Position numbers and translations under genes: made by a program
Shown here: positions 5,565 through 24,408 of the stretch, piece after piece
Layout of the letters: each line of letters opens with the position of its first letter
Numbering within the stretch: position 1 is the first letter of the stretch
Source of the DNA: Chloroflexota bacterium
GTDB taxonomy: Bacteria; Chloroflexota; Limnocylindria; Limnocylindrales; CSP1-4
Assembly (NCBI GenBank): GCA_003152995.1
Contig: PMBR01000117.1
Location: 1-63,981, forward strand
Length of the DNA stretch: 63,981 nucleotides
Direction of reading: 5' to 3'
The notes under the pieces: model-generated
Seen by the model: the letters and a program-made list of their open reading frames with translations, nothing else
The model's database searches: none
What the model was told of the DNA's origin: nothing

Positions 5565-5676
5565 TCCGATCTGCTGCCAGTTTTGATGGTCGCCCTATGC
5601 TGCCCGCCTCACGTCACGATCCGCGACATCTGACGAAATGGAAGCGGACCGGATAGGGCCAACGGTCTCGCGTACC

Positions 5677-6681: not shown

Positions 6682-6862
6682 GATCGCGCTCCCCTCCGGG
6701 CCCTGTATCCGTCCAAGCAGGGCGATGGTCCGATTGTAGGCGGCAGCCCGCTACGGCACGAGACCAGATCGTTCGTGCTCGGCTATGTGGTCATCGTGTG
6801 GGTTCGGTGTGGCGCGCAATCCGACCCGCGCGCGATGCTTCGCCTCCGTCCACGGGTCCTGG

Positions 6863-7798
6863 TCAGTCGGCGGGGATCGCCACGGCCTCGTGTCCGCCCG
6901 CCGTGGTGACGACCGCCGGCAGGCCCTGAGCAAATGCGATAAAGAGCAGCACCATACCCACGAGGCTCCCCAAGCTGATAAGGATCGGCTGGTACGGGAA
7001 GGCGAAGCCGACCAGTACGTGGGAGTACGCCGCGAGGTTCAGGGCGGTCACCAGAATGGCCACGCCGAGAAGCACGGCCGAGCCGGCGAAGACCAGCAAC
7101 CAGAACCTGCGCGGCTCCTCTTTGGCCCGAGCCGCGGCCAGAGTCGACCAGGCGAGTGCGCCCACGGTCAGTAGCCTCAAGGGCCCAAGAGCCGCGAAGG
7201 CGACCAACCAGGGGTAGCCAGGGGTGACCTGGATCGTGGTCCCCGAGAAGTCGCTGAGTGCGCCGTTCGCAGCAAGCAGGCACAGCATGGCCGTGGCAAC
7301 CAGCGTGGGCCCGACCAGCGCCCCCGGCCAGGTCGTTTCGGTACGTCTACTTCGCAGCAACGCGATGGCAACAAGAGCCGGTCCGGCCACCGAAACCAGA
7401 TCCGCCAGACCCCGGGCAATCTGTAGGTCGGAGAAGACAGATACATCCGGCCACTGCTCAGGCGAGAGTACCTGCTGGGCCCACGACACGACATCCCCGA
7501 CCAGCGGAATGGAAGTCCACACGATGGCTCCCAGCAGCAGCAAACGGGCCGACCGCCACGCATCACGGCAGCCGATCAGGATCGCCACCGGCAGGAGCGC
7601 TCCGGCAGCAATGCCCGCGCACAACAAGTCTGGTAACGCATTCGAGAGGAATAGCTGTCCGTTGGCCGCGACGGCGAATGCCGCCAGAAGGATGAAGGGC
7701 CAGGCCTCACGCGGGACACGCTGACCTCGGGCGGCCAGCCCATCCTGTATTTGGGTCAAGCCACGCGGATCGGCAGGTTCGTAGTCGGTCCCATTCAC
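6863..7798 (-). CDS. Polytopic integral membrane protein
   Basis: 311 aa, dominated by repeated hydrophobic helices. Confidence 0.6.
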   Translation of the reverse strand: MNGTDYEPADPRGLTQIQDGLAARGQRVPREAWPFILLAAFAVAANGQLFLSNALPDLLCAGIAAGALLPVAILIGCRDAWRSARLLLLGAIVWTSIPLVGDVVSWAQQVLSPEQWPDVSVFSDLQIARGLADLVSVAGPALVAIALLRSRRTETTWPGALVGPTLVATAMLCLLAANGALSDFSGTTIQVTPGYPWLVAFAALGPLRLLTVGALAWSTLAAARAKEEPRRFWLLVFAGSAVLLGVAILVTALNLAAYSHVLVGFAFPYQPILISLGSLVGMVLLFIAFAQGLPAVVTTAGGHEAVAIPAD

Positions 7799-8115
7799 GT
7801 GTACTCCCTCTCTCGTATCGATCGGCTACCGGCCGCGGTGGCATCGAACCACCAATGCGGTCTGCGTCACTCAAGCTAGAGTCGGACCCGACGGCAAGCG
7901 TTCCCAACGCAGGAAGTCGCCGCCAACCCGCCCACAAAGATAGACCTCTGCGAGCGCGCGCAGGTTCGGGCCGGTGACACTGCCCTCGAGCAGGATCGCC
8001 CCCGGTTCTTCCGACGGATCGGATCCCACCCTATCAAGCCGTCGTAAGGGTCGACTTCGGCCCATCGAAGCTCCAGAATGGGGAGCGAGGGAACGGTTGT
8101 GGAAGAGGCGGCACT

Positions 8116-8772
8116 ATGAACTGCCCACGGTGCGGAGCTCAGATCGCGCTCGGCGCGGCTTGGTGCCCTCGGTGCGCGCTACCGCTGGCGGCACAGCCTT
8201 GGCAGCCCCCGCTGGCATACGTGCAACCCACGCCACGCCGGAGCCCGCTCGTATGGCTCGGGTTGGCCATTGCCGTCCTATTCGTCTGCGCCCTGGCGAT
8301 CGCCGCGGCCTCGAGGGTCGCCTCGACCGCTGGCGCTTCGCCGACACCAGCCGGCCCGGCCGTCTACAGGCCCGGCGACACGGCAACGGTTACGCGTGAT
8401 GGCTGGACCGTGAAGATCACCGTATCCGACGTTCAGGTTGTCGACTCGTACAAGGGCGACTACGTGACCGAGCAGCCGCAGGTCCAGGGCGACGTGTTCA
8501 TTTCGGCGAAGGTGACCTACGAAGCAGTCACGGATCACGTCTCGTACGGTCTCGAGGATTGGAGCGCCTACTGCGCAGGCACCGCGGTAAGTACCGGCTA
8601 CGTCCTCTATGGCCCCGAACCAGACCTTGGCTTCGGCTCCCTGATCGCGGGACGGAATGCCTTCGGCTATCTCGTCTGGGAGGTACCGGCTACGGGTGAA
8701 GTCAGAATGGACTACAAGGCTGTGATCTTCGACGACACGCCGACATTCGAAGTCATCGTCCGCAGCACCTGA
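8116..8772 (+). CDS. Zinc-ribbon / TM / DUF4352-like extracellular domain protein
   Basis: CPRCGAQIALGAAWCPRC, a TM segment, then YRPGDTATV...GRNAFGYLVWEVPATGEVRMDY (DUF4352-like). Paralogous to 9317..9970. Confidence 0.7.
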   Translation: MNCPRCGAQIALGAAWCPRCALPLAAQPWQPPLAYVQPTPRRSPLVWLGLAIAVLFVCALAIAAASRVASTAGASPTPAGPAVYRPGDTATVTRDGWTVKITVSDVQVVDSYKGDYVTEQPQVQGDVFISAKVTYEAVTDHVSYGLEDWSAYCAGTAVSTGYVLYGPEPDLGFGSLIAGRNAFGYLVWEVPATGEVRMDYKAVIFDDTPTFEVIVRST

Positions 8773-8970
8773 GCGCTCGCGGCAGAGGCCGGAGCCCGGC
8801 AGCCCGGATTCGGACCGAATCGAGGCCCAGTTCCTAGGGCGACCCGCGTTAGGTGCGATCGAGCGGGGTGACGCTCCAAACCTTCAGGCGCCCGCATAGT
8901 CAGCCCCACTGTTGTCACCCCGGCCACTAGCGGGTGATAGCGCCCGCCCCATTCCGGGGCGCGCATTCTC

Positions 8971-9270
8971 TCAGTGGTGAGCACCCATGTTCGCGAGGAT
9001 CAGCAGGATGAGAAAGATGGTCGGAATGATTAGCAGGCATCCGCAGCCCCAGCCAAAGCCCTGAGTGATCGAACCTCCGAGACTGGGCTGCTTCTGCGGC
9101 GGGACGTAGTACTGCGGCGCCTGATACTGGGGCGTGGGCGGCGCTGAATAGCCAGGCGGAACGACCGGAGGCGGCGCTGGCTGTGAGAAGCGGCCGCCGC
9201 AGTTGGGGCAGAAAGCCGCCCCCGGTCCGACGGATCCGCGACAGAACGGACACTGATAGATCTGCTGCAT
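8971..9270 (-). CDS. Small zinc-ribbon, proline-rich, C-terminally TM-anchored protein
   Basis: CPFCRGSVGPGAAFCPNCG, then a PPxY-rich stretch, then the TM segment CLLIIPTIFLILLILA. Confidence 0.55.
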   Translation of the reverse strand: MQQIYQCPFCRGSVGPGAAFCPNCGGRFSQPAPPPVVPPGYSAPPTPQYQAPQYYVPPQKQPSLGGSITQGFGWGCGCLLIIPTIFLILLILANMGAHH

Positions 9271-9316
9271 AGTCGCCCCTCGCCCTGGTGCGTCGCTGCC
9301 CCTGCGATCCCAATGC

Positions 9317-9970
9317 TCACGCGGCCCGGATGATTACCTCAAACACAGGGCCGCTGTTCGAGAAGATATTCCCGCCGTAGGACATGCGGACCTCGCCCTT
9401 TCCTGGCACCTCATAAACCACGTAGCCCGTGGCCTTGCGCCCATTCGGCAGCTTGCCTGAATCCAGCTCGGGCTTCGGCGCGTTCATAAGGAACGTGGTG
9501 TTGTTGACGGCCATACCGGCGCAAAAGACCTGCCAGTCGAAGGGGTTGTAGTCGACGCCGTCCTGGAGAGCCTCGTAGGTCACCTTGGCCTGGATGAAGA
9601 CGTTGCCACGGGTCTGGGGTTTGTCGGTGTAGTAGCTGCCCTTGTACGAACCCACGATCTTGACGTCGGTGATCGTAATCTTCGCCCAATCGCTGCCGCT
9701 CTCGGTAACAGTGATAGCATCGCCGACCTTGTAGGTCGCCGGGCCAGCCGGGGTGGGCGTCGGCGTTACGAGGATTACGTTCGGTGTTGGCGCCAGGGTC
9801 GGGGCCTCCGCCACTTCAGTCGCGGCCGGACTTGCCTCGGTAGGCTCAGGCGCGACCGAAGCCACCGACGCCGTCGTGGACGCAGCCGGTTGGACGTTGC
9901 CGACCGATTGGGTGGCGCACCCCGCCACGACCATGACCCCTGTTAGGACGAGCGCGATTCTGCCGTGCAT
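9317..9970 (-). CDS. Lipoprotein with DUF4352-like domain
   Basis: Internal start MHGRIALVLTGVMVVAGC provides a lipobox. The domain aligns by eye with 8116..8772. The longer track ORF (to 10174, TTG start) adds an Arg/Ser-rich extension that is unlikely to be real. Confidence 0.7.
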   Translation of the reverse strand: MHGRIALVLTGVMVVAGCATQSVGNVQPAASTTASVASVAPEPTEASPAATEVAEAPTLAPTPNVILVTPTPTPAGPATYKVGDAITVTESGSDWAKITITDVKIVGSYKGSYYTDKPQTRGNVFIQAKVTYEALQDGVDYNPFDWQVFCAGMAVNNTTFLMNAPKPELDSGKLPNGRKATGYVVYEVPGKGEVRMSYGGNIFSNSGPVFEVIIRAA

Positions 9971-10163
9971 GCTGTACCCCTTCGTCGAGTCTCCCCTAGG
10001 ACGCATGCTTCCACGGTAGCCAGCGAAGTCACTATGCATATGGGCCACTTGGCTAGTCAGAGGCGTACTCGCCGAGCGCCCGCGATGCCGCGATGGTGAA
10101 CTCACTTTGGCACGACGAAGACGAGAGGGTCGTGACGAACCGAGCACCGGTAGAATCGCCCGC

Positions 10164-10784
10164 GTGAGCGACAAGTTTGGTCAGGGTGACATCGTCCGAG
10201 TGCTTGAAGGCCCGCACGCGGGTCGCGAGGGTGCGATCTACGATGCGATCGGTATTCCCCACGATCCCTGGATGAGGATGGACGAGGAGGGTCGGCCAGA
10301 GTATCGCGTCTATTTCGGGCTAGAACGTGGCATCGACGCCGGTTGGTTCAGCGACGAGGACCTGGAGATCGTGAGGCCAATGCCCGGAGTGGCATTTCGA
10401 ACCGGGGATCGAGTGCGCATCAGGGCGGAGGCCTACTGGGCCCGGGGCGAGCTCGGGACTGTCAATCCCGGCGCTTGGGCCCCGCCACTCACCCCCCGAG
10501 TCGTACATCGGCGCGAGGGTCCCGTACGGGTACACATGGTCCATCTCGATCATCCGCGGCGCGATGCAAGCGGGGACGGCCCGTACACGGTCGGCTCATT
10601 CGCCGAAGCGGAACTCGAACTGCTGGACGACCCGACGGATTGGGCGCCGGCTTACCCGGCGGCCCGCCTCGCCTCGGAAGGCGGCGCGCTCAAGCAGGTG
10701 ATAGAGAACCCGGGTCTCGGGAGACCCTCAAAAGGCGCGCAGACCGGCGCGACCGGGCCTAAGCGGAATCGACCGCGGACCTAG
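10164..10784 (+). CDS. Hypothetical protein with two KOW/SH3-like GD-V-R-V motifs
   Basis: GTG start giving VSDKFGQGDIVRVLEGPHAG; second motif GDRVRIRAEAYW. Function unknown. Confidence 0.45.
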   Translation: MSDKFGQGDIVRVLEGPHAGREGAIYDAIGIPHDPWMRMDEEGRPEYRVYFGLERGIDAGWFSDEDLEIVRPMPGVAFRTGDRVRIRAEAYWARGELGTVNPGAWAPPLTPRVVHRREGPVRVHMVHLDHPRRDASGDGPYTVGSFAEAELELLDDPTDWAPAYPAARLASEGGALKQVIENPGLGRPSKGAQTGATGPKRNRPRT

Positions 10785-10940
10785 TCAGCGAGGGCACCAA
10801 AATAGCCTAGTCCTGGCGACCTCTGACCAGATTCCGGGCGGTGGGAGAGTCGTCGTCGCCACCATTTGGTCATAGCGTTGCTATCCGAGCGCACCTGAGT
10901 GAGGTATGTGGGTGACCACTCCGCACCCGAGGCGCCCACG

Positions 10941-11876
10941 ATGACCGCTCAACCGCTCCCCGCACTGACCAGCGGAGACCCATCTGCCTGGGACCAGGCC
11001 CTCTACGCCTTCTTGATCGAGAAGGGCAACCGGTCGGGCTCGAAACGCACCGTCGAGTCCTACAGCCGGATGCTCTGGCCGTTCTTCGCCGACCTCGGCA
11101 AGACGCCTGATCGAGTCAAGCCGGCCGACGTCCTGGCCTGGGTGCACGGCATCGGCAAGTCGGGCCGGACCCCTTCGGCAACCACGGTCGGCGCCAGGAT
11201 CGCGTGCCTCTCCTCCCTGTACCGCTTCTTGATCCGGATGGGTCTGGTTGTCTCGAACCCCTGCGACGCCGTCGAACGGCCCAGGGCGGTCCAGTCGGTC
11301 GCTCGGGGTTACAGCGCCGATGAGGTACGTCGGCTCCTTGCCGTCGTCCCCGACACCATTGCCGGCCGGCGCGACCGGGCCATCCTGCTCACCCTCGTCT
11401 TGACCGGGAGACGGCGGGCGGAGGTGATCGGCCTGCGCGCAGGCGACCTGAGTCTGGAGGGGGAGACCACCTTCTACGCCTACCGAGGCAAAGGGGGCAA
11501 GCGAGGACGACGAGAACTCCCCCACCCCGCTTACGAGGCCATCTGCGCAACGCTCGCCGACGCCGGCAAGGAGCTGGCGACCATGGCTCCTGCCGAGTCG
11601 CTCTGGCAAGCGGCTGCTCGGCCGGAGGGAGTCACAAGCGGCACGTTCTACGCCCGCTTCAGACGCTACCTCGCGGCGGCTGGCATGGCCCCGACTGGCA
11701 TCCATGTCCTGCGGCACACCGCTGCCAAGCTGCGACGCGATGCTGGCGAGTCGATCGAGTCGGTCAGCCAGTTCTTGGACCACAGTTCGCTCGCGGTCAC
11801 GAGCGTCTACCTCCGCCGACTCGAGGGTCAGGAGGACCTGACCTGGCGCGAAGTAGCGCAGGCGATCGGGGTCTAG
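10941..11876 (+). CDS. Tyrosine recombinase/integrase (XerC/D-like), copy A
   Basis: TGRRRAEV, HVLRHTAAKL and LAVTSVYL supply the R, H-x-x-R and Y catalytic elements. About 92% aa identity by hand count to 45883..46818. Start ATG 10941 chosen because homology between the copies and the shared MTAQPLPAL begin there. Confidence 0.9.
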   Translation: MTAQPLPALTSGDPSAWDQALYAFLIEKGNRSGSKRTVESYSRMLWPFFADLGKTPDRVKPADVLAWVHGIGKSGRTPSATTVGARIACLSSLYRFLIRMGLVVSNPCDAVERPRAVQSVARGYSADEVRRLLAVVPDTIAGRRDRAILLTLVLTGRRRAEVIGLRAGDLSLEGETTFYAYRGKGGKRGRRELPHPAYEAICATLADAGKELATMAPAESLWQAAARPEGVTSGTFYARFRRYLAAAGMAPTGIHVLRHTAAKLRRDAGESIESVSQFLDHSSLAVTSVYLRRLEGQEDLTWREVAQAIGV

Positions 11877-11898
11877 ATCTACACCCACCCAACGGCGG

Positions 11899-12693
11899 CT
11901 AGAAGAACGGTTCGAACCTGGGAAGCACGTTTCGAGTGACTGCGCTATAGAGGTGGTTGACTACGTCCTCGAGGGGCCAAGCAGACGCCCAAAGCGGCCA
12001 GTCCTCTGCGAACCCCCGAGGGGGCTGCGCCAGCGTTACCTGGATCGCGAAGCGTGCCTGAAGTCCAGATATTGCTGAGTCGATTGGGAGCCAAATCTCA
12101 GCGTCATTCCTGGTGGTGGGAACGGCAAAGCCAGGCTCCGAGGTATCGCCGTCCGGTCGGTTGTAGGTCGCGGAGTCTGGCATCACGAACGAGTAGCCAA
12201 ACAAGATCGTCCGATGTTTCGCCACATTCCAGAGCGTTTCGAGAGTGGCAAGGGCGCGATAAGTGCTCCAGTCGTCCCCATCCTCGCGTCGACTCTCATA
12301 TGGCTGCAACTCTTCGATGATCCGATTGGCGTCGTCGGGAACGGAATCGAGTTTCCTCTTGCTGAGAGCCGTGAAGCCGCCAGATCCATCGGATTGGCGA
12401 CAAATAGGGAAGGCTGAGCCTCTCGAGGGCCCGTCGGGTCGCATCTCGCCGACCAGATAATCGAGGCTTGATCGAAGGTTGTCGATGAAGTCTCCTACGG
12501 TGAGGGCCACGTCGGATGGCACGGGCTCGGGATCATGGGCTCGCCAGATACGGCATTGGACACCATTCCGCTCGCCGATGCCTTCGGTCACCAAGAAGGG
12601 TCTTCGAAGGCGGTACGTGTCCAACTGACGCAGGAGCGATTCACGATGGCGGTTTGCCCATTGGATCTTGAGCACCAATGCTTGAGGGGTCAC
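11899..12693 (-). CDS. Hypothetical cargo protein (264 aa) in the variable slot of module A
   Basis: Start GTG 12693 (or TTG 12696) preceded by GGAGG. The upstream part of the 415-aa track ORF runs through the non-coding repeat. No confident family assignment. Confidence 0.55.
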   Translation of the reverse strand: MTPQALVLKIQWANRHRESLLRQLDTYRLRRPFLVTEGIGERNGVQCRIWRAHDPEPVPSDVALTVGDFIDNLRSSLDYLVGEMRPDGPSRGSAFPICRQSDGSGGFTALSKRKLDSVPDDANRIIEELQPYESRREDGDDWSTYRALATLETLWNVAKHRTILFGYSFVMPDSATYNRPDGDTSEPGFAVPTTRNDAEIWLPIDSAISGLQARFAIQVTLAQPPRGFAEDWPLWASAWPLEDVVNHLYSAVTRNVLPRFEPFF

Positions 12694-12875
12694 CAACCTA
12701 CCCTCCGTCTTGGGGAAACCGCGAGGGTCCGTCGGGCCCCGCTGCCCATCCAGACTACGCCGGCCGGTCTGCAGTTTCCTGTCCGGTGGGCGCGAGTCGG
12801 GGTGCAAGATGGTTGGCAACCATCCCGCGGGAGCAGATAAGCCGCAGCTAAGCGGCGCCTGATACGGTCGCTCCG

Positions 12876-12957
12876 GGTCGGGCTCCGCTCTGTGACCGGG
12901 CCGATGCCGGACGACGGTGAGCGAGCCAGCGAGGCGGCTGCCCCAGGCGTCCCGACC
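12876..12957. repeat. 82-bp conserved repeat, copy 1 (homology to copy 3 extends back to about 12824)
   Basis: ggtcggg...cccgacc termini form a 7-bp inverted repeat. Nearly identical to 47849..47930 except for a cluster of 4 substitutions at about 12937-12945. Confidence 0.85.
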
Positions 12958-12973
12958 CAACCGGCCGGCGTCT

Positions 12974-13189
12974 CTACCGATTGGTATCGCGCAGTCGCCG
13001 GCGAAGCTCGTCGCCGTCCTTGTCGCCGACACTGAGTCTCGGGTCAGGAAAGTACGGGCCCGCAATGACGGTTGCGCCACAGACTGGACAGCGGAACTTC
13101 GGACTGCCACGCAGGTGGCCGGTCTTGCGCACGAACCGATGCCCACTCGGGCAGATCAGCTCCAACTGCTGATCGTCAAAAGGCGCCAA
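12974..13189 (-). CDS. Small zinc-ribbon protein (about 71 aa)
   Basis: TTG at 13189 lies 7 nt after GAGGA. Motif CPSGH...CPVCG. The longer track ORF runs through repeat copy 2. Confidence 0.45.
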   Translation of the reverse strand: MAPFDDQQLELICPSGHRFVRKTGHLRGSPKFRCPVCGATVIAGPYFPDPRLSVGDKDGDELRRRLRDTNR

Positions 13190-13270
13190 ATGCTGATCCT
13201 CTAACGCGGCGCTTGGGTCAGATGAGCCGTCGCGCGAATCTAAGTCCTGGGCAGAAAGCCTATCCGCCCG

Positions 13271-13352
13271 CGTCGAGCTCCGCTCTGGCGCCGGGCCGAT
13301 GCCGGACGACGGTGAGCGAGCCAGCGAGGGTGATGCCGCAGGCGTCCCGACC
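13271..13352. repeat. 82-bp conserved repeat, copy 2 (5' arm degenerate)
   Basis: Matches copies 1 and 3 over 'ctccgctct...gccgggccgatgccggacgacggtgagcgagccagcgagggtgatgccgcaggcgtcccgacc'. Confidence 0.85.
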
Positions 13353-13408
13353 CGTCGGTCCCACAGGGCGGCAGGATCGGACGTGGGCGGTGGTTGCACC
13401 CGCGCGGA

Positions 13409-14329
13409 TCAGGTCGACGAGCCGCCACTCGCAGCGTCTTCGACCCGCAGTCGCCTGCGACGCGCATCCTGGCGCTCCGCGTTCTTCACCTTGCGACAGT
13501 TGGAACACCAGACTGCGTCCGATCTGCGGCGATGTCCGCCGGGGCTACGGTCTGGGAGAAGAGCCCCGCATCTGCGACATGCCGACGGCCGTCCGGAGGT
13601 CGTCATGGCAGAGCGAGCTTGGAGTTGGGCGATTAGCTGAGCGTACGCGTAGCCCAAGAGCGTCAGGCAGCGCACCTCGGGCATTGGTTGAGCCGGAGAC
13701 CAATCTCGCTGATGTATAGGCTTGGCAAGCCAGTCCTCCATCGGAACCCGCAAAGACCAGGTCTCCTCCACGGTGAGGGAGACCCATTCGAGGATCTGCC
13801 ACTCGCCGGTCTCCATGTCGCGCGGCGAGGGCGATGGTCGTCCCGGCTTGAGGTTGAGACCATTGCGGCCCACGTCTAGCGGTCGAAGGTCGGCTAGGGA
13901 GCTCTGCAGCGCGGCTGCCGCCTGGCGTCGAACCGAGTCAAACCGCTCCAGCGTCGAAGCCTTAGAACCTCTGGCTTGAGCCCGTGCCCCAGCCAGCCCG
14001 ACTCGCGCCAAATCCCGCAGGAGCCCAAGGACCAGCGCCTCTGATCGGATCGCGTCGACGATCTCAGCTTTGGGCGTGCCGGACGAAGTCGAGTAGAGCC
14101 CAGTGAAGCGATTAGCGAACCGCTCAACGGCCTGATCGTCGGCATTTGCCAGGTCAACAAGCCGATCGAGCAGCTCCGGGTCACCTTGAAACGGCGGCTC
14201 GTGGAGTCGGCCGTCGGCCACCAGGCAGATGTCGCCGTCAAGTTCAGCCAACCGCCAGCGCCAGCGCTCCAGGAACACTCGGAAGGGGAAACCGAACCAG
14301 TCTGGTAGAAGTGTGTGCGGATCCGTCAC
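13409..14329 (-). CDS. Hypothetical protein with C-terminal zinc ribbon (306 aa)
   Basis: GTG start. C-terminus CRRCGALLP...WCSNCRKV. No family recognised. Confidence 0.55.
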   Translation of the reverse strand: MTDPHTLLPDWFGFPFRVFLERWRWRLAELDGDICLVADGRLHEPPFQGDPELLDRLVDLANADDQAVERFANRFTGLYSTSSGTPKAEIVDAIRSEALVLGLLRDLARVGLAGARAQARGSKASTLERFDSVRRQAAAALQSSLADLRPLDVGRNGLNLKPGRPSPSPRDMETGEWQILEWVSLTVEETWSLRVPMEDWLAKPIHQRDWSPAQPMPEVRCLTLLGYAYAQLIAQLQARSAMTTSGRPSACRRCGALLPDRSPGGHRRRSDAVWCSNCRKVKNAERQDARRRRLRVEDAASGGSST

Positions 14330-14374
14330 CGGCTAATAGTAGAGCCGGGGTCTCCGGCGTCGTAAGTTCGGTCC

Positions 14375-14557
14375 GTGACAGCGGAACGCGTCGGTCGATC
14401 TCGGCGAGCACCTAGCGAAGCCTCTCGCCGACTTGCACGACCCCTCGACCTAGAGCGTGTATGTGCTCCTGACGCGCCGGCTATGGTGGCTGCCCTTCGG
14501 GTGGTTCTAGGCCTTCCGAGACAGCTTCCCGACCGCGGTCAGGGAGGTGCCCGATGA
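14375..14557 (+). CDS. Small conserved ORF translationally coupled to LSR-A
   Basis: Its stop overlaps the LSR start (ATGA). The C-terminal roughly 40 aa, RRLARPLDLERVCAPDAPAMVAALRVVLGLPRQLPD, are conserved with 48812..49027. Many differences are synonymous, including aga/cgc and ctt/ttg. The true start is uncertain. Confidence 0.6.
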   Translation: MTAERVGRSRRAPSEASRRLARPLDLERVCAPDAPAMVAALRVVLGLPRQLPDRGQGGAR

Positions 14558-16212
14558 CGGTGGCGGCAGGGGTCCGGCGAGTCGCGACCTACGAGCGAGT
14601 GAGCAGCGACGACCAGCGCGAGCGCGAGACCATCAAGACCCAGACCGATCAGCTGGATCGCTGGCTCGCTCGCGAGCCCGGTGTCGAGCTCGTTGGCCGG
14701 TACAAGGACGATGGCGTTAGCGGAACCATCGCCCTGCAGGATCGCCCCGGTGGTGGCAGGCTGCTGCGCGACGCGGCGGCGGGACTCTTCACCGAGCTGT
14801 GGGTGTACAAGACCGATCGGCTCGGTCGCGATGCCCCCGACGTCCTCCAGGTGCGTAGGCGACTCTCCTGGCTAGGCATCCGGCTTCTGAGCGAAGCTGA
14901 AGGCGAACAGAGTCCTCTCGCGTTCGACATCCAGACCGTGGTCGACGACTACTCCCGGGTCGAGTTCCTGCGCAAATCTGCCCACGGTATGGCGCGCGCC
15001 GCCCGTGAAGGCCGCTACTGCGGCGGCATCGTCCCCTTCGGCTTCCGAGTCGAGGGCGCCAAGCAGACAGCTCGCCTGGTGCCCGATGAGACGATTGTTT
15101 GGGCCGACAAGAGCGCAGCCGATCTCGTCCGCGATATCTACGAGCGTCTCTCCCTTAGGCGCCAGAGCTGCCGAGCGATTGCCCTCGACTTCAACGTTCT
15201 CGCTATTCCGACTCACTACACACGCGACGGGCGCGGGGTGAGGGGCAAGCTAACGCAGGGTTTGTGGCGGGCGGGTCGTATCCGCAACCTCGTGGTCAAC
15301 CCGGTCTATCGCGGCGAGCTGCAGTACGGCCGGCGGATCGACCAGCGCGGTCCCAAGACCGAGCGTCGTGGTCACGAGATTACCAGCGCTCCCATCGAAG
15401 GCTTGGTCTCCCCTACCCTCTGGCAAGCCGCCCAGGATGCCCTGGCCGCCAACCGCCGCTGCACCAAGAACACCCACAGGGTCTACCTCCTCAAGGGCGT
15501 GATGAAGTGCGGCATCTGCGGCCTGACCTACGGTGGCTCAGCAGGCACGCCCAACAATTGGTATCGCTGCCGCGGACAACTTTCAGATCGCGGTCCGGTG
15601 GTCGGCCGCTGTCCTGGGTATTCGATCCGCGACGATCGGGTCGAACCTGTCATCTGGACCGAGGTGGAAGCCTGGCTGCGCAATCCAGGCGATGTGCTTG
15701 ATGCCCTTGACGGCACCCGCGAACGCGAGGCTGCCGGAGCCATTGCCGAAGCCGAGTCGATCACCCTGCGGCGGGCCCTTGATGGACTCGAAGCTCAGCG
15801 CAAGCAGGCCACTGCCCTCAACATCCGCGGCCGGCTCAGTGATGCGGACCTCGACGCCGAGCTTGATCGCATCGAGATGGAACGAGGGGCGCTGGAAGCC
15901 CGCGTGGCCGCGTCAGAGGCCGCTATGGGCGATCCGCTACCCCAGGAGGCGCACGACTTCCTGACTGAGATCAGAGCCCGCCTGGACGCCGGACTGACCG
16001 ATGAGCAGCGGGCCGAGATCGTCCGCCTCCTCGTGCGCATCGTCATCCACACCGACCTGTCCGGCCCCAAGAAGACCGTCAAGGCCGCAGTGACGTTCCG
16101 CTTTCCCGCTGTAGTTAGTTTCTTCACGGGCATCCGTGAAGAGGTGAACTACACCACCGTGCGCCGGGTGATCGAGTTGCCGGTGGGCCGCCAGAAGGTA
16201 GCGGTGGGATGA
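14554..16212 (+). CDS. Large serine recombinase (LSR-A)
   Basis: Resolvase catalytic motif YERVSSDDQ, followed by recombinase, zinc-ribbon (CGICG...RCRG...GRCPG) and coiled-coil regions. 552 aa. Confidence 0.9.
   Translation: MTVAAGVRRVATYERVSSDDQRERETIKTQTDQLDRWLAREPGVELVGRYKDDGVSGTIALQDRPGGGRLLRDAAAGLFTELWVYKTDRLGRDAPDVLQVRRRLSWLGIRLLSEAEGEQSPLAFDIQTVVDDYSRVEFLRKSAHGMARAAREGRYCGGIVPFGFRVEGAKQTARLVPDETIVWADKSAADLVRDIYERLSLRRQSCRAIALDFNVLAIPTHYTRDGRGVRGKLTQGLWRAGRIRNLVVNPVYRGELQYGRRIDQRGPKTERRGHEITSAPIEGLVSPTLWQAAQDALAANRRCTKNTHRVYLLKGVMKCGICGLTYGGSAGTPNNWYRCRGQLSDRGPVVGRCPGYSIRDDRVEPVIWTEVEAWLRNPGDVLDALDGTREREAAGAIAEAESITLRRALDGLEAQRKQATALNIRGRLSDADLDAELDRIEMERGALEARVAASEAAMGDPLPQEAHDFLTEIRARLDAGLTDEQRAEIVRLLVRIVIHTDLSGPKKTVKAAVTFRFPAVVSFFTGIREEVNYTTVRRVIELPVGRQKVAVG
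16121..16142. other. Perfect palindrome tcttcacgg-gcat-ccgtgaaga; candidate attP-type recombination site inside the LSR-A 3' end
   Basis: 9-bp arms with a 4-bp spacer. The homologous position in LSR-B (50597..50609) keeps only the left arm and spacer, after which comM sequence starts. Confidence 0.55.
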
Positions 16213-17564
16213 GCAGCCTCGAGCGCCTCGGTGACAGTGCTGCAGCCCGCAAGGTGTTTGCGCGTGTCGAAGAGACCGCTCAGGACGGCGTGGTGGCCAT
16301 CAAGCCCGTCGCGCCGCTGCCCGAACCACTCGAAGCGATCGACCTCTCGCAGGTTCGAACCCGACCCATCGACTGGCTGTGGCGCGGCTACATCCCGCTG
16401 CGCAAGCTCACGATCCTCGATGGCGACCCGGGTTTGGGTAAGTCGACGATCCTGCTCGACTTGGCCTCACGTGGCTCGATTGGCGGTGTGGCGCCCACAG
16501 GTGAGCCCCTCGGCGATGCCTTCACGACCATCTACATCACGGTCGAGGACGACGCCGAAGACACGATCCTGCCGCGCATCCTCAAGGCCGGGGGAGACCC
16601 ATCTCGGTTCCACCTGGTCCGGAAGCTCGTCCTGCCCGCGGAGATCGACAGGCTCGAAGAAGCAGCCACAAGGCTGAAGGCTCGACTGATCGTCATCGAT
16701 CCGCTGATGGCCTACCTCGGCGATGGGGTCAAGACCAACGACGACCATCTCGTCCGCCGGGCCCTGGAACCGCTAGCCGAAATGGCTGCTCAACTCGACG
16801 CCGCAGTCGTGGCCATCCGCCACCTGAACAAGCGGGTCGGTGATGACGCGATCTACCGCGGCGGCGGCTCGATCGGGTTCGCGGGACTCGCCCGCAGCGT
16901 CCTAGCCGTTGGTCGCGATCCCGACGACTCCGACCGGATGATCCTTGCGGCCACCAAGCTCAACGTGGCCCGGCGCCCTGCCTCGCTGGCCTACCGGATC
17001 GTCGCCGACGGCGACTACGAGCCGGCCCACATCGCCTGGGACGGAACGTCAGATCGGACCGCCGAAGACCTCATAGGTCGTACCCGAGACGAGGTCGCTG
17101 GACGCTCCAAGACCGGTGACCTCGCCCACGCCATCCGCGAACTCCTCAAGGCGAACGGTGGCTCGATGCCGACCGGCGAGGCGTGCGAGGCCTTGAAGAA
17201 GCAGGGCTTCGACATCAGCTCCCAGGACAACCTCGGGCGGGCTCGGGCCCAAGCCGGCGTCAAGAGTGCCAAGGCGGGATACGCCGGCGGCTGGGTCTGG
17301 TCCTTTTCGTCGTCAGCGGGGAGATCGGAGCCTTCGGTGCCTTCGGAGCCTTGGCAGACCAATCCGTCGAAGACTCCGAAGAGTCCGAAGACACCGACCA
17401 AGACACCGAAGACACCGATTTCCTCCTCTAAGGAAGAACCGGTCTCTTCAACCCCAGAACCATCCCTAGAAGAGGGGGCGGCCACCTTCTGGGAGGACAA
17501 CTCCCTCCTTCAAGGAACGGTCTCCGCCAGTCGCACGAGAACCTTTGAAGGAAGGCCAAGATGA
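16209..17564 (+). CDS. RecA-fold AAA_25/RepA-like ATPase
   Basis: Walker A DGDPGLGKSTILLDLA. ATGA overlap with the LSR-A stop. Lys/Pro/Thr-rich C-terminal tail. Confidence 0.7.
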   Translation: MSSLERLGDSAAARKVFARVEETAQDGVVAIKPVAPLPEPLEAIDLSQVRTRPIDWLWRGYIPLRKLTILDGDPGLGKSTILLDLASRGSIGGVAPTGEPLGDAFTTIYITVEDDAEDTILPRILKAGGDPSRFHLVRKLVLPAEIDRLEEAATRLKARLIVIDPLMAYLGDGVKTNDDHLVRRALEPLAEMAAQLDAAVVAIRHLNKRVGDDAIYRGGGSIGFAGLARSVLAVGRDPDDSDRMILAATKLNVARRPASLAYRIVADGDYEPAHIAWDGTSDRTAEDLIGRTRDEVAGRSKTGDLAHAIRELLKANGGSMPTGEACEALKKQGFDISSQDNLGRARAQAGVKSAKAGYAGGWVWSFSSSAGRSEPSVPSEPWQTNPSKTPKSPKTPTKTPKTPISSSKEEPVSSTPEPSLEEGAATFWEDNSLLQGTVSASRTRTFEGRPR

Positions 17565-18802
17565 GCGTCCAGACTCCCCTGCCCTCCCTGGTCGTCGAGG
17601 AGGTCCCGATCGATCTCCTCCGTCCTGATCCCGCCAACCCTCGACGGATCAGCGACGAGGAGCTGGACTCCCTGGAGCGCAGCCTCCGCCAGTTCGGCTT
17701 CGTCCAGCCGGTCCTCGCTCGCAAGGAGGACAAGACTGTCATCGGCGGTCACCAGCGCCTGCTTGCCGCCCGCCGGCTCGGCCTGGCCACAGTCCCGGTC
17801 ACCTACCTCGATCTATCTACAGAGCAGGCTCGTCTGCTCAACCTCGCCCTCAACAAGATCTCCGGGTCCTGGGACGACGCTTTGCTCGCCCGTCTGCTGG
17901 CCGACCTGCAGGCCAGCCCGAACATCGACCTGACCCTCTCCGGCTTCGGAGACGACGAGATCGCCGATCTCCTCCGCAGTCTGGAGACCCGCGAGAAGAA
18001 GGAGCGGGTCGAGGACTTCGATCTCGACTCCGCTCTAGAGGACGCAACCCGGACTCCGCGCTCCAAGCCTGGCGATCTATGGGCCCTCGGCGAGCACCGA
18101 CTCCTGTGCGGGGACGCCACCAAGCCCGAGGACCTCGAACGGCTTCTGGCTGGCGCTCAAGCCTCGATGGCGTTCACCGATCCGCCATACAACGTCAGCC
18201 TCGGCGATCACGGTGGCCAGCAGAGAGGATCGCGAAAGAGACGGATCGCCAACGACTCCATGGACCCGATCGCCTGGGAGGTCTTCGTCCGGGCCTGGGG
18301 CCGGACGCTCCTGACCAGCGTCGACGGCGCCATCTACTGCGCCATGAGCAGCAAGGAGATGCCGCTCGTGTCGCGGGTCCTGGCCGAGGAAGGCGGCCAC
18401 TGGTCCGACACGATCATCTGGCACAAGGATCGCTTCGTCCTCGGACGTGCCGACTACCAGCGGGCGTATGAGCCGATCTGGTTCGGTTGGCGGGAAGGCG
18501 CGAGCCACCACTGGTGCGGGGATCGCGACCAGGACGACGTCTGGGAGATCAACCGACCATCCGACGCTCCGCTCCACCCCACGATGAAGCCTCTGCCGTT
18601 GATGGAGCGCGCGATTGCCAACAGCAGCGAGGCGGGTGATCTGGTGCTGGACCTCTTCGCCGGCTCAGGCAGCACCCTCATCGCCTGCGAGCGGACCGGC
18701 CGGCGGTGTGCGGCCCTCGAACTCGATCCTCGCTATGTAGACGTAGTGCTGGCGCGCTTCGAGAGGTTCAGCGGCCAGACTGCGGAGCGGCTCGATGGCT
18801 AG
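17561..18802 (+). CDS. ParB-like N-terminal domain fused to N4/N6 DNA methyltransferase
   Basis: IDLLRPDPANPRRI...GGHQRLLAARRLG (ParB/Srx fold). FTDPPYNV and LDLFAGSGSTLIACE methyltransferase motifs. Confidence 0.85.
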   Translation: MSVQTPLPSLVVEEVPIDLLRPDPANPRRISDEELDSLERSLRQFGFVQPVLARKEDKTVIGGHQRLLAARRLGLATVPVTYLDLSTEQARLLNLALNKISGSWDDALLARLLADLQASPNIDLTLSGFGDDEIADLLRSLETREKKERVEDFDLDSALEDATRTPRSKPGDLWALGEHRLLCGDATKPEDLERLLAGAQASMAFTDPPYNVSLGDHGGQQRGSRKRRIANDSMDPIAWEVFVRAWGRTLLTSVDGAIYCAMSSKEMPLVSRVLAEEGGHWSDTIIWHKDRFVLGRADYQRAYEPIWFGWREGASHHWCGDRDQDDVWEINRPSDAPLHPTMKPLPLMERAIANSSEAGDLVLDLFAGSGSTLIACERTGRRCAALELDPRYVDVVLARFERFSGQTAERLDG

Positions 18803-19196
18803 ACGAGCATCGCCACCCAAGCCGGCGTCGGGCGCCACCGTGGCTCGTGTGCGCCGATCGAGATCCAAGTCGGCCACGAACGCGACTCGCGCCCTGCGTG
18901 CGAGCGTGGACGCCCTCGCGGCCAAGGTTCCCCTCCAGGCAGCAGACCGCAATGACTCGACCCGCTGGGCGCTCCGCTATCTAGAAGCCAGCCGACCGAC
19001 GAGCGTCCTAGCACCCACACCCCTGAGCGCGGAAGACAAGACCAAGATGGTCTATGTCCAGGCCGATCAGTTGGTGGGCGTGATCAGAGCCGTGCTGGAG
19101 GGGCTCAACCTGTCGGACGCCGACTACACCCGCGGCATCGACCTCGCGATCAAGGAGCTTCGGGCTGCCTCCTCGCAAGGCTGGGAGCCGCTGTGA
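18795..19196 (+). CDS. Hypothetical protein (133 aa)
   Basis: Overlaps the upstream stop by 8 nt, consistent with operon continuity. Confidence 0.45.
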   Translation: MARRASPPKPASGATVARVRRSRSKSATNATRALRASVDALAAKVPLQAADRNDSTRWALRYLEASRPTSVLAPTPLSAEDKTKMVYVQADQLVGVIRAVLEGLNLSDADYTRGIDLAIKELRAASSQGWEPL

Positions 19197-19251
19197 GCGA
19201 CCGACCCTATGGCGAGATGGCGAGCACCCGGCGGTATACCAGAGGTAAACG

Positions 19252-19671
19252 ATGGTAAACCGCGGCTGCACCTTCGAGATGCCCGACGGCCTCCTGTGTC
19301 AGGCTCCAGCGCTGCGCGGCAAGGCGCTCTGCTACTGGCACGAACCCGACGCATCCGACGCGGCGCAGGAAGCTCGGCGGGTCGGAGGCCACCATCGGCG
19401 CAAGGCCCGAAGCGTCGCGACCATCTACGACTTCGCAGGGTTGCGCACCGTCGAGAGCGCCCAGCGACTGCTCGAGACCGCGGCCATTGAGACGTTGGCC
19501 TTGGAGAACTCGATCCAGCGCAACCGCACCCTCATCAGTGCCGCAGCCGGTGCCGGCAAGCTCATCGAGGCAGGCGATCTAGCAGACCGACTGACCGCCG
19601 TTGAAGCCGCCGTTGGCCCCAAGGCCCATCCCGAAGGCGATGCCGCCTTCCCCGAGGAGCCAGCTCGATGA
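19252..19671 (+). CDS. Hypothetical protein (139 aa)
   Basis: ORF coupled to the next gene through an ATGA overlap at 19668. Confidence 0.45.
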   Translation: MVNRGCTFEMPDGLLCQAPALRGKALCYWHEPDASDAAQEARRVGGHHRRKARSVATIYDFAGLRTVESAQRLLETAAIETLALENSIQRNRTLISAAAGAGKLIEAGDLADRLTAVEAAVGPKAHPEGDAAFPEEPAR

Positions 19672-20450
19672 CCCTTAAGCGACGCCTCGACTCCCTTGAG
19701 ACCTCACTGTCCCCCACCCAGCTTGTCCTGCGCTGGCTGGCCGAGGCTCATACCTACGGCGACATCGAGCCCTACGTAGCCTCGCTCCTGGCCGAGCCCA
19801 CGCCGGCCGCTCCTCTGGATCGTCTGGCCCGGGAGGCAGTCCAGGGGGCTAGGACTGCAATGCGCGGCAAGCGTCCCGAAGTGGTGGATGCCGCAGTCCG
19901 GAGCGCCCTACGCGAGACGGTCTTTCGCTTCGAGCTGGTGATGCGCATCAACGTGACCGCACACGAGCTACTGGATCGGGAGGCCTTGATCGACGCCGCC
20001 CTGTCAGCCAACCTCTGCCTTGCCTTCGGCGGGGATCAGCAGGCCGACCCGAAACGCGTGGAGCACCTCGCGACCCTGCGCGATCTGATCTGCGTCCGGG
20101 TTGACGAGCTATTGGCCAGCGGGGAAGCGCGCACGCTCGTCGAGAATCGCTACCTCGACGGCCATGACGCGCTCTTCCCCGACCTCGCAGCGGCCTGGGA
20201 AGAGCAGATCCACAGCACACAGGTGATCGCGGCTATGGCAGTCCGCATGGCCGAACTCGACGGCGCCCGGGCCGCTCCAACGCCGGACCCCGAGACGCCG
20301 TCCCGGCGGACGACGGAGCTTGTGGCCGATCTGGTGGAGCCTGCGAAGTCCGAAACGCTCGACAAGCTCGGGGAGGGCCGGCGGTCGCTGGACATCGCCA
20401 ACGCCTGGGTGCGGCGCAAGCTCCGCCAAGTTCCGCAGCCGGAGCCGTGA
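19668..20450 (+). CDS. Hypothetical protein (260 aa)
   Basis: Coupled to the upstream ORF. No motif recognised. Confidence 0.5.
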   Translation: MTLKRRLDSLETSLSPTQLVLRWLAEAHTYGDIEPYVASLLAEPTPAAPLDRLAREAVQGARTAMRGKRPEVVDAAVRSALRETVFRFELVMRINVTAHELLDREALIDAALSANLCLAFGGDQQADPKRVEHLATLRDLICVRVDELLASGEARTLVENRYLDGHDALFPDLAAAWEEQIHSTQVIAAMAVRMAELDGARAAPTPDPETPSRRTTELVADLVEPAKSETLDKLGEGRRSLDIANAWVRRKLRQVPQPEP

Positions 20451-20563
20451 ACGCCGTCACCATGGAACGATCGTGAGGTCGCCGTCCGACAACTCCGTCA
20501 CGATGCTAGCTATGCTGGCGTCCCAACCTCAATCGACGGGGCAGGCTCACAGAAGGGGATCAC

Positions 20564-22135
20564 GTGGAGCGGGGACCGGGTTCGTGGTCGGGTGGTAGAC
20601 GGGGTTCGTTCGGTCTGGCAGCGGTGGCGCTGATCGCTCTCGCGGCGACCGCGTGCACCGCGACGACGAGTCCGTCGCCGCAAGCATCAGCATCGCCGTC
20701 CGCGTCGGCAACGCCATCGGCAAGCGCCATCGGTTCGACCGAGACTGCCAGTCCGAGTCCGAGTCCGACTCCGAGCCCGACCGCCTTCTGGACCCCCGAT
20801 CTCGCCCTCACGCCGTCACCGACCGTCGCGCCGGATGACAACCCCACCGACGCGACGCCGACCCCGCCACTCCCCAAGGGCCCGCTGCCGAGCGTCGGCC
20901 CCGTCCCGACCGGCAACTGGACCGGCATCAAGTGGATCGCCATTCCCGGTGGCCACTCGCCGGCCATTCCGCCCTACACGGAGGACTACACCGTCAACGA
21001 CACTCTGGAAGGTTGGAGCCAGGGATACCTCGAGTTGATGTGGAACCCGTACAACCGCACGTTGACGCCGTGGGTTTCGACGGATGGGTTGAACTGGAGC
21101 TCCGGATCACGGATCGACATCAGCCTCTGGAGCGCCCAATTCAAGGGCTATGACCAGGGACTCGACGCCGCGGACCGCGCCGACTGCGGTTTCGAGGTCG
21201 TCCAATTTGAAGAAGGACCGGCGAACCTGCTGCTCCGAGGGAAGGTCGCCTGCAGCGGAGGCTGCGGCGGACCCTGGTATACGACCGAAACGATGTGGTC
21301 CTCTACGGACGCGAAGTCCTGGACGCCGATTGATATGCCAAAGATCTTCGGAGCTGGCGGGATCGGCCCGATCTCTGGTGGCTCGAGTGGCTTCGTCGCT
21401 CTCGGGGCCTCTCACGACAAACAGACCATATGGACTTCGAGCGACGGCCAGAACTGGGAACCTGGCGCGCTCCCTCCGGCTGCCCTAGCTACCGGATCAT
21501 GGGCCAACGATCCGGCTTCGTTCGCGGGCGGTTTCGTGCTCCCGGGTGTCGTGCTCGAGGCCAAGGGCCACGGCTTTGTCCCGCCGAACCATAGTGACTA
21601 CGGCTACGGCGGCGGCTACACCGACGGAGGTTGTGTTGGCCGTAGTCCAACAGACTTCTCGATGTACCGGGCCGCGATATGGTGGTCGCCCGACGGCAGC
21701 ACGTGGACACGAGCCACCTTGAGCGGGACCACAGCTGCCTCAAGCGTAGACATGGAGATCTATCGGATAGACGACCACACGTTGATAGCGCAGCAGATCG
21801 CTTCTACCGAGGACAGGGTGCTCACGTCCTGGATTTCCACCGACGGCAAGAGCTGGATGAGGCTCGTCAGTCGGTTCCCCGAGCTGCTGCCATGGCAGCT
21901 TATTGTGGGAAGGACTCGCGGCTTTATCTACGATTACGGGTGGGCCGGAGGCGAGGTCAGCACGATCCCGGCTACGACGCTGTCTGTCTTCACTCCCGAC
22001 TTCAGGATGGCCGATCTCAAACAGACCGGCGACGCTCCCTGGATCGACGAATGGCAGACCGCGCTGGGGCCGACCGGACTCCTCGTTACAGAAGATGGCT
22101 CGCAGTTCTGGATCGGGGTGCCGACTGCCGGGTGA
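20564..22135 (+). CDS. Lipoprotein with BNR/Asp-box beta-propeller repeats
   Basis: Lipobox LAATAC and a Ser/Pro/Thr linker. Five S-x-D-G-x-x-W boxes: WVSTDGLNW, SSTDAKSW, TSSDGQNW, WSPDGSTW, ISTDGKSW. Confidence 0.7.
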   Translation: MERGPGSWSGGRRGSFGLAAVALIALAATACTATTSPSPQASASPSASATPSASAIGSTETASPSPSPTPSPTAFWTPDLALTPSPTVAPDDNPTDATPTPPLPKGPLPSVGPVPTGNWTGIKWIAIPGGHSPAIPPYTEDYTVNDTLEGWSQGYLELMWNPYNRTLTPWVSTDGLNWSSGSRIDISLWSAQFKGYDQGLDAADRADCGFEVVQFEEGPANLLLRGKVACSGGCGGPWYTTETMWSSTDAKSWTPIDMPKIFGAGGIGPISGGSSGFVALGASHDKQTIWTSSDGQNWEPGALPPAALATGSWANDPASFAGGFVLPGVVLEAKGHGFVPPNHSDYGYGGGYTDGGCVGRSPTDFSMYRAAIWWSPDGSTWTRATLSGTTAASSVDMEIYRIDDHTLIAQQIASTEDRVLTSWISTDGKSWMRLVSRFPELLPWQLIVGRTRGFIYDYGWAGGEVSTIPATTLSVFTPDFRMADLKQTGDAPWIDEWQTALGPTGLLVTEDGSQFWIGVPTAG

Positions 22136-22302
22136 GCGGGCCAGGAAGGCAAGCAGCGCTCGGCCGCCACCATGACACCATCGCGTTCGCATCGGCCGTC
22201 CTGCCCAGACCTGGGCTGATTGGCTTCGCTCGCGGGGCCCTGACGTGCCCCCGGTCGGCTCGGTATCCTGTCGGGGCTGACCAAGGCGAGGGACAAGAGG
22301 GC

Positions 22303-24273: not shown

Positions 24274-24408
24274 GGTGAGGGCAGGCGACGGGCGGCATCA
24301 GTCGCGACGAGCCCCCATCGACATGACCGAATCAAGCGGCGCAACCAACCTATCTGGGGCCGAAAGTGTCCTAGATTCTTGACGCGGGACAAATCTCGGT
24401 GCGCGCGC

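Follow-up and report, generated by a model that had tools for sequence, protein, structure and literature searches.

The DNA analysed here, which we refer to as the window, is a stretch of 63,981 nucleotides from a Chloroflexota bacterium (contig PMBR01000117.1 of assembly GCA_003152995.1, positions 1 to 63,981 of the forward strand). It contains two genes for large serine recombinases (LSRs) and a part of the host gene comM. The first recombinase, LSR-A, has 552 amino acids and is encoded on the + strand at 14554..16212. The open reading frame (ORF) of the second, LSR-B, lies on the same strand at 49024..50778; according to its Pfam domains and the alignment to LSR-A it is authentic recombinase up to 50608, and its last 56 codons are antisense comM. 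The 5' part of comM (YifB family Mg chelatase-like AAA ATPase) occupies 50601..51715 on the minus strand and is cut after codon ~372 (AAMNPCP). At the 3' end of the LSR-A ORF there is a 9-4-9 palindrome at 16121..16142, composed of TCTTCACGG (16121-16129), GCAT (16130-16133) and CCGTGAAGA (16134-16142) with perfectly complementary arms. An earlier note made from the sequence had reported this palindrome, and its letters and coordinates were exact on re-reading. The palindrome is very probably the inner core of an attP-type (P-P') site of a comM-targeting LSR family and sits at the junction of two tandem elements, which we call A and B.

Both recombinases carry the Pfam domains PF00239, PF07508 and PF13408 (Resolvase, Recombinase and Zn_ribbon_recom). 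The proteins are 55% identical and the genes ~66% identical in DNA; the homology stops at FFTGI in LSR-A and FSTGM in LSR-B. When the AlphaFold2 (AF2) model of LSR-A was compared by Foldseek, the full-length phiC31, SPbeta and Bxb1 integrases were the top matches with E ~1e-19. The model places long helices (388-455) between the strands of the zinc ribbon. The sequence identity to solved integrases is just 15-17%; the sequence search of the PDB matched the catalytic domain alone and the full-length integrases were reached by the fold search. By their domain architecture LSR-A and LSR-B are bona fide LSRs.

We found 554 homologs of LSR-A at E <= 1e-20 and judged the C-terminal tails among the best 120. 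For 29 of them the match is full-length and ends in a nearly invariant C-terminal tail (...NYTTVRRVIELPVGRQKVAVG). In ~80 of the 120 the homology is lost at residue ~527 and a variable Arg/Pro-rich sequence follows (e.g. TGTGSWPRATGTAK...), which is translated antisense comM. There is hence a large clade of LSRs that targets comM and has attP inside its own 3' coding end. Hosts of the clade belong to Chloroflexota. The closest comM proteins carry the name Candidatus Limnocylindrales, and related loci occur in metagenome-assembled genomes (MAGs) of Limnocylindrales, Chloroflexia and Dehalococcoidia. The loci of the relatives in genome contigs were found with an alignment query; LSR-A as a single-protein query gave no matches.

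A perfect palindrome with 9-bp arms is by itself not rare and proves little. We counted 13 perfect inverted repeats with 9-bp arms and spacers of 0-8 bp in the window, compared to 6.2 +/- 3.3 in first-order Markov random sequences. The exact 22-mer occurs a single time in the window with up to 3 mismatches allowed (0 expected). It forms the inner part of a 44-bp imperfect inverted repeat at 16110..16153, to which no strand is assigned and which reads TGTAGTT-AGTT-TCTTCACGG-GCAT-CCGTGAAGA-GGTG-AACTACA. The outer frame of this repeat is TGTAGTT-N30-AACTACA and its centre is the CA at 16131-16132. The pattern TGTAGT-N31-AACTACA has one occurrence in the window, at 16110-16153 (0.16 expected), and pattern searches found no second att-like site there. 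About 16131/16132, 16 of 22 positions are symmetric, which is the joint highest score in the window, tied with one other position. In size and shape the repeat matches the attP of serine integrases, which is 40-50 bp long and forms an imperfect inverted repeat around a non-palindromic central dinucleotide (PMC11722253). The elements of the family all keep the central CA, the outer motif and the spacing of 30 bp. The inner arms differ among relatives, often without palindromy: for the P' arms we observed CCGTGAAGAGGTG, CCCTGCAAGTCAC and GGGTTCATACGTG and for the P arms TCTTCACGG, CTCGCACGG and TTGCACCGC. The site owes its weight to its position and its family-wide conservation and not to the 9-4-9 palindrome itself. 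Of the two inner half-sites in the window, the left arm comes from element A and the right arm from element B.

The corresponding sequence at the end of LSR-B is interrupted by comM. LSR-B is homologous to LSR-A through tctccacgggcat, and the letters at 50597-50609 are TCTCCACGGGCAT. Past 50609 the first ~370 residues of comM/YifB are encoded on the minus strand; the earlier note had likewise read comM from there on. The comM fragment covers positions 1-161 of 207 of Pfam Mg_chelatase and reaches 382 bits for TIGR00368 (cut-off 362 bits). The homologies to LSR-B and to comM meet precisely at CACGGGCAT, and the DNA homology between the window and the intact comM of the relative L193 stops at 50601, the left edge of CACGGGCAT. 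Together these form an attR-type (P-B') site at 50587..50629 (no strand assigned) with the letters (T)GTAGTC-GATT-TCTCCACGG-G-CA-TGGATTCATCGCGGCGACGAG, in which the P arm TGTAGTC-GATT-TCTCCACGG-G-CA is joined to the B' arm TGGATTCATCGCGG... and the CA lies at 50607-50608.

The uninterrupted target was found in three relatives with an intact comM (L193-L195, 90% identical protein). Their attB reads GCCGCACGGG-CA-(C/G)GGGTTCAT, or in the orientation of the window ...CCCTCGCCnGCrTGGCCGCACGGG-CA-sGGGTTCATGGCCGCCAC.... The target pattern in comM is ...GCCGCACGGG-CA-yGGrTTCAT... and the insertion falls at the NPCPCG codons. For the window we reconstructed the comM attB as CCCTCGCCGGCGTGGCCGCACGGGCATGGATTCATCGCGGCGACGAGTTGG; a repaired comM would read ...GCACGGG-CA-TGGATTCAT.... 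The core CACGGG-CA, whose lack in intact comM had been named beforehand as evidence against the proposed sites, is present in L193-L195. The block 'cacgggcat' had been suggested as possibly shared with intact comM; CACGGGCA is indeed present in all three relatives, but the ninth base, T, varies as the third position of a Pro codon.

The fourth type of site, attL (B-P'), was identified in 16 species-representative genomes and in further metagenome contigs. It consists of the comM 3' end in antisense, CCGCACGGG-CA, the P' arm and AACTACA. A loose pattern yielded 89 loci, 16 of which were genuine once the comM C-terminal motif was demanded; the attL of CAVYIM010000007.1 was not picked up by this loose scan. 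Junctions of the attP type occur, besides site A of the window, in L081, L092, L100, L117 and others. All four types are in hand: P-P' (site A), P-B' (site B), B-P' (16 genomes) and B-B' (intact comM). The attB of L193-L195 shares the central dinucleotide, and the attR of the window and the attL of the 16 genomes are hybrids with exchanged half-sites. The earlier proposal that site A is an unrecombined P-P' site and site B a P-B' hybrid holds. One of the 16 attL junctions, L214 (CAZCCL010000026.1), belongs to a Gaiellales actinobacterial MAG and is a genuine comM attL with CCGCACGGG-CA ... AACTACA, so the family is not limited to Chloroflexota.

In the window's own elements attP and attB share CACGGG-CA left of the centre. 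The distant array on OZ242360 has CCACCCG-CA-TCGCTG at an attP-type site and CCACCCG-CA-CGGATTCAT at its attR, and just (G)CA is shared with comM. Because CA alone is shared in every case and the inner as well as the outer symmetry is centred on it, we placed the predicted crossover at the CA at 16131..16132 (no strand assigned) and 50607-50608, where it would straddle codons 526/527 of LSR-A. This agrees with the previous placement in or next to 'gcat' and narrows it to two bases. In serine integrases the zinc-ribbon motif lies 4-5 bp nearer to the centre in attB than in attP (PMC11722253). Read by eye, Dehalococcoidia may show such a shift, with GTAGT at -16..-12 in the B arms of attB compared to -20..-16 in the P arms, 4 bp closer to the centre. 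In the attB of Limnocylindrales the zinc-ribbon motif is weak (GGCGTG / GGCATG).

The arrangement of the genes around these sites shows where the elements begin and end. Family-wide, a ParB-methylase gene followed by o133, o139 and o260, often with AAA_25 in front, stands directly after attL and therefore represents the left end of the element. An Xer-like recombinase and the LSR stand directly before attR and therefore represent the right end. The window has the order [... Xer-A, LSR-A] [AAA_25, ParB-methylase ... cargo ... Xer-B, LSR-B] [comM 5' part]. Since a right end (Xer-A, LSR-A) directly abuts a left end (AAA_25, ParB-methylase), two elements are in tandem. Both run in the same orientation and have their own end modules (right-end modules at 10899-16132 and 45841-50608), with a hybrid att site at the boundary between them. 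Element B measures 34,476 bp from P' arm to P arm (16133..50608, + strand), which is the distance between the CA centres; L081 and an analogous inner element of 33.6 kb in CAVYIM010000007.1 support this delimitation. Element A is represented by its right-hand part at 1..16132 (+ strand); its left end and the comM 3' part are outside the window.

A contig from a JGI metagenome, L081, helps to tell the two elements apart. Its LSR gene (P0105) is 93% identical in DNA to LSR-B up to 50609; past its crossover it reads GCAT-CCGTGAAGAGGTGAACTACA... and then continues with 90-100% identity to window positions 16134-20476. LSR-A is just ~62% identical to this LSR. The sequence to the right of 16133 thus travels with recombinases of the LSR-B type, and L081 combines the P' arm CCGTGAAGA-GGTG-AACTACA with a P arm of the LSR-B type (TCTCCACGG). 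The perfect arm symmetry in the window is that of a hybrid, formed by the P arm of A and the P' arm of B. The symmetry amounts to 9/9 positions in the window, 8/9 in L081 and 6/9 in L092.

Similar arrangements were found independently. On the 301-kb contig CAVYIM010000007.1 a tail-bearing LSR is followed by AAA_25 and ParB-methylase genes and, 33.6 kb further downstream, by a truncated LSR with a comM fusion. Two Chloroflexota chromosomes hold longer series. OZ242360.1 contains three tandem LSRs (L147, L169, L161), the last one of which is fused to comM, and OZ253578.1 (3.367-3.776 Mb) has at least 6 tail-bearing LSR paralogs in the same orientation across ~400 kb (L148, L150, L151, L152, L155, L158). 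These series may represent very large tandem arrays at comM. In each of the SPRUCE 394, 155 and 597 MAGs there is a single attL together with two LSRs, one bearing the tail and one with a match that ends at the crossover (residue 526); for SPRUCE 394 the comM fusion downstream of the latter was confirmed. Taking all of this together we consider it highly likely that elements A and B form a tandem (accretion) array, inserted head to tail in the comM gene of the host. Of the two readings offered in the earlier note, two elements in tandem is the best supported, with the ends of element B moved by 1-3 bp to 16133-50608.

The other of these readings takes site A as the intact attP of a single element A that continues rightward past 16134 within a larger island, so that the sequence from 16134 on would belong with LSR-A and not with LSR-B. 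The symmetry of the arms had been thought to favour it. The overlap of the LSR-A stop codon with the start codon of the next gene is operon-like, all eight other contigs with LSR-A continue in the same way, and A and B could well be mobilised together by way of the outer attL and attR. However, L081 joins the same P' arm and downstream module to an LSR-B-type gene, which leaves the symmetry as a feature of the A/B hybrid, and its perfection is not conserved in L081 and L092. The family-wide position of the module after attL and of Xer and LSR before attR speaks for a boundary at site A, and element B has a complete right-end module of its own. We therefore regard a single element crossing site A as improbable.

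The junction could also be an artefact in which a circular or separately integrated A-type element was misjoined to B during assembly through the shared 4.3-kb module. The left-end modules of different elements are 98-100% identical over long stretches and would act as a repeat for short-read assemblers. Against this, eight further ENA/JGI contigs span the A/B junction at 99.9-100% identity. They originate from different samples and assemblers, and such independent assemblies from several samples and pipelines cross both module boundaries unbroken (L084 covers 6815-22978). These contigs argue against a misjoin via the conserved module without settling the matter. As the same architecture is also present in the unrelated 301-kb contig and in chromosome-level assemblies, we judge an assembly artefact to be very improbable.

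Two explanations dispense with recombination at the palindrome. The half-sites TTCAC/GTGAA resemble parS and a gene with a ParB_N domain lies 1.4 kb downstream, so the palindrome had been suggested, as a fallback, to bind the ParB-domain protein. In this protein ParB_N is fused to an N6/N4 methyltransferase and no ParB helix-turn-helix (HTH) domain was detected, and the window holds one copy of the site. Relatives with a 78-88% identical ParB-methylase carry quite different inner arms (CCCTGCAAG, GGGTTCATA, CCGTGAAGG), and in the window the left arm and the ParB gene belong to different elements. We rejected a ParB/parS site, which has next to no probability in view of the single copy, the lack of an HTH domain and the variable arms. 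A chance feature of GC-rich coding sequence, with ~6 such palindromes expected per 64 kb, is less credible still and was rejected on the comparative data, as the palindrome falls precisely on the breakpoint between LSR-B and comM and is part of a symmetric 44-bp site that is unique in the window and has an architecture conserved across the family.

Several points weigh against an att core at the palindrome and a tandem array at comM. The 9-4-9 palindrome alone is statistically ordinary in the first-order Markov comparison. All data are metagenome assemblies, for which a repeat-induced misjoin via the conserved 4.3-kb left-end module is conceivable. Motif search and tblastn of the window revealed neither an attL nor a comM 3' (C-terminal) fragment, which leaves the left boundary of both the array and element A out of sight. 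We also found no contig that reaches further left; the outer attL next to the other half of comM presumably lies beyond the left end of the contig. No excision junction and no repaired comM were recovered from the source organism. Furthermore, canonical LSRs recombine just attP with attB, or attL with attR in the presence of a directionality factor. A tandem array therefore requires attP x attL or attP x attR recombination, or else a pre-fused double circle.

The remaining features of the two elements can be described briefly. The conserved left-end module of element B (16209..20450, + strand; Pfam and PHROGs) consists of an AAA_25 helicase-like gene (16209-17564), a ParB_N-DNA methyltransferase fusion (17561-18802) and ORFs of 133, 139 and 260 amino acids. 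The start codon of AAA_25 overlaps the LSR-A stop codon (ATGA). In other genomes this module is found behind attL junctions as well as behind tail-bearing LSRs. Xer-like tyrosine recombinases are part of both right-end modules and are encoded on the + strand. Xer-A at 10899..11876 was recognised by XerC/XerD-like NCBIfam matches below the family cut-offs and by Phage_integrase in L084, and Xer-B at 45841..46818 by Pfam Phage_integrase and NCBIfam, being conserved upstream of the LSRs of the relatives. The two genes have 83.6% nucleotide identity, compared to ~66% for the LSR genes. A possible role of these recombinases is the resolution of dimers or the formation of co-integrates. Between Xer-B and LSR-B a segment of ~2 kb (46817-48889) is absent from the otherwise collinear L081; it includes an ORF at 46891-47691 with weak HIRAN and BRCT matches. 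A repeat of ~90-136 bp (86-92% identical) occurs at 12825-12957 and 13263-13352 upstream of LSR-A and at 47795-47930 upstream of LSR-B. It could be a regulatory element or small RNA common to the right-end modules; an Rfam scan of the window found no family, including for these ~90-bp repeats.

One ORF of element B (26625-38387, minus strand) encodes 3920 amino acids with RHS repeats and Laminin_G_3 domains and is a candidate polymorphic toxin. Neighbouring genes at 39480-40187 and 40734-41537 encode an Amidase_6 and an RDD protein, respectively. The contig opens (1-750) with 5 copies of a 150-bp tandem repeat with 88% matches, which may be the reason why the assembly stops there.

With regard to the target gene, comM of the relatives L193-L195 lies between a response-regulator/ParA-like gene and dprA. 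The former is kept in the window (53599-54929), and dprA must sit on the far side of the array, past its left end. Among the 120 closest comM homologs (P0121-P0240), roughly one in four is truncated at ~365-400 amino acids compared to ~525 amino acids; insertion into comM was confirmed solely at the loci examined and not for every short homolog. The short homologs suggest that insertion at this codon is very common in Limnocylindrales. At L094/L111 and L112 the sequence in front of the LSR tail remnant and P' arm belongs neither to comM nor to an LSR. A rearrangement, decay of the element or the use of another target may account for these loci.

From established LSR biology we can propose how the sites would be used. 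A recombinase dimer would bind the ~44-bp site, with the recombinase domain reading the inner motifs and the zinc-ribbon domain reading the outer TGTAGTT/AACTACA. Both strands would then be cut 2 nt apart at the central CA, and after rotation of the subunits the ends would be religated, with half-sites exchanged between the element and the attB of comM. Site B (50587-50629) would be the resulting attR, with the matching attL to the left of the window. As attP is inside the recombinase's own coding sequence, integration would swap the last 26 residues of the LSR for an unrelated antisense-comM read-through. A P-P' junction, be it in the free circle or between tandem elements, would restore the tail and couple the LSR translationally to the AAA_25/ParB-methylase operon. 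The array may have arisen when a second circle integrated into attL or attR in a non-canonical pairing, or when a pre-fused A+B circle integrated through one of its two attP sites. Such a circle might for instance result from homologous recombination, either within the left-end module, which is nearly identical, or at the Xer site. If the sites are presently active, excision of the entire array by attL x attR would restore comM.

The exchangeable part of the recombinase follows from the predicted crossover. With a crossover between codons 526 and 527 the P side supplies residues 1-526 of LSR-A and the P' side residues 527-552 (IREEVNYTTVRRVIELPVGRQKVAVG), and the latter come from whatever sequence adjoins on the right. 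A P-P' junction provides the conserved tail, with the stop codon overlapping the AAA_25 start, and attR provides the antisense-comM read-through (56 codons in LSR-B). The tail motif NYTxxxRV[I/V]xL is kept in Dehalococcoidia despite quite different DNA (NYTKLQRVVHL*, NYSRLQRVVQV*), and the tail-coding DNA shows synonymous changes among close relatives. Both observations indicate that the tail is conserved as a protein and not merely as a DNA site. In the AF2 model a low-confidence linker (520-528), which is encoded by the crossover core, precedes a beta-strand at 533-542 with a predicted local distance difference test (pLDDT) score of ~65, and on this weak signal the tail may be structural.

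Members of the clade encode their last 11-26 residues, with NYTxxxRV[I/V]xL and the predicted beta-strand, beyond attP. It is conceivable, though in our view rather unlikely, that the recombinase is its own sensor of the integration state, with directionality control built into the structure of the gene and not left to a separate directionality factor alone. The full-length enzyme would in that case be made solely in the free circle or at tandem P-P' junctions, and an integrated single copy would produce an enzyme that is tail-less or has an unrelated tail. The tail would bias the enzyme to attP x attB, and its loss would either fix the integrated state or switch the enzyme to excision. A sensor of this kind could also explain the growth of arrays to at least 6 elements, as one full-length LSR would be kept. 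In the literature searched we found no description of an attP embedded in an LSR ORF with a conserved exchangeable tail, which does not prove that there is none.

In domain architecture and fold the LSRs of the window are the same as the integrases of phiC31, Bxb1, SPbeta and A118/LI. The system also resembles the phiC31/Bxb1 type in its attP of 40-50 bp, the unrelated attB in a host gene that shares the central dinucleotide, and the hybrid attL and attR. In contrast to that type, attP lies in the 3' coding region of the recombinase and the C-terminal 26 residues are exchanged. Unlike phage integrases, the recombinases of the window belong to non-phage elements, which carry the AAA_25 helicase-like gene, the ParB-methylase, the Xer-like recombinase and the RHS cargo of 3920 amino acids. 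No directionality factor was identified in the elements of the window.

Related islands that lie head to tail with repeated att cores are likewise found in the Dehalococcoides ssrA islands (PMC3146451), composite SCCmec and ICESt1/CIME. The Dehalococcoides islands also belong to Chloroflexota and have an LSR (DsiB) beside ParB-domain and DNA-modification genes (PMC3146451). They differ in that the target here is comM and not ssrA, and that the recombinase is at the opposite kind of edge with its ORF crossing the att site. Moreover there is no small second serine recombinase here, and the internal junction rebuilds a full-length recombinase gene. In archaeal integrases of the SSV1 type attP is inside int and the gene is split on integration; the enzyme is a tyrosine recombinase and the two parts are large. 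Mycobacteriophages of the BPs type show integration-dependent immunity, in which attP lies in a coding sequence and the repressor loses a C-terminal tag, again with a tyrosine recombinase. We regard these two as the nearest analogies to an attP within an LSR gene, whereas here the enzyme is a serine recombinase and just the last 26 residues are exchanged. In Tn4451 and Tn5397 (TnpX, TndX) the joint of the excised circle makes a promoter and alters recombinase expression; here the joint completes an ORF and couples it to the downstream operon.

Literature searches on comM together with serine recombinase or integrase mostly returned false matches to 'comm.' or 'common'. One survey of isolate genomes lists a target named 'ATP-dependent protease', which we take to be a common older annotation of ComM/YifB; the identity of the surveyed gene with comM could not be confirmed. 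In this survey (Durrant et al., bioRxiv 10.1101/2021.11.05.467528) the gene family is targeted by 12.4% of the predicted site-specific LSRs. The surveyed family is probably comM/YifB and the choice of target is then likely already known. For the LSR family of Chloroflexota (Limnocylindrales, Dehalococcoidia), the attP that splits off the tail and the tandem arrays we found no description in the literature searched. The less usual part is the location of attP within the LSR gene, so that integration replaces the last 26 residues; otherwise this is a known kind of system.

The analysis provides a full att set (attP, attB, attL and attR with the predicted central CA) for a large uncharacterised LSR family of Chloroflexota. 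There are few genetic tools for Chloroflexota, and new orthogonal integrases are sought for genome engineering. An attP in the recombinase ORF with a tail on its far side that is conserved as a protein suggests a simple testable coupling of the form of the recombinase to the integration state. The short comM homologs, about one in four, and the arrays of at least 6 elements and ~400 kb make the family a major source of genome variation in Limnocylindrales and Dehalococcoidia.

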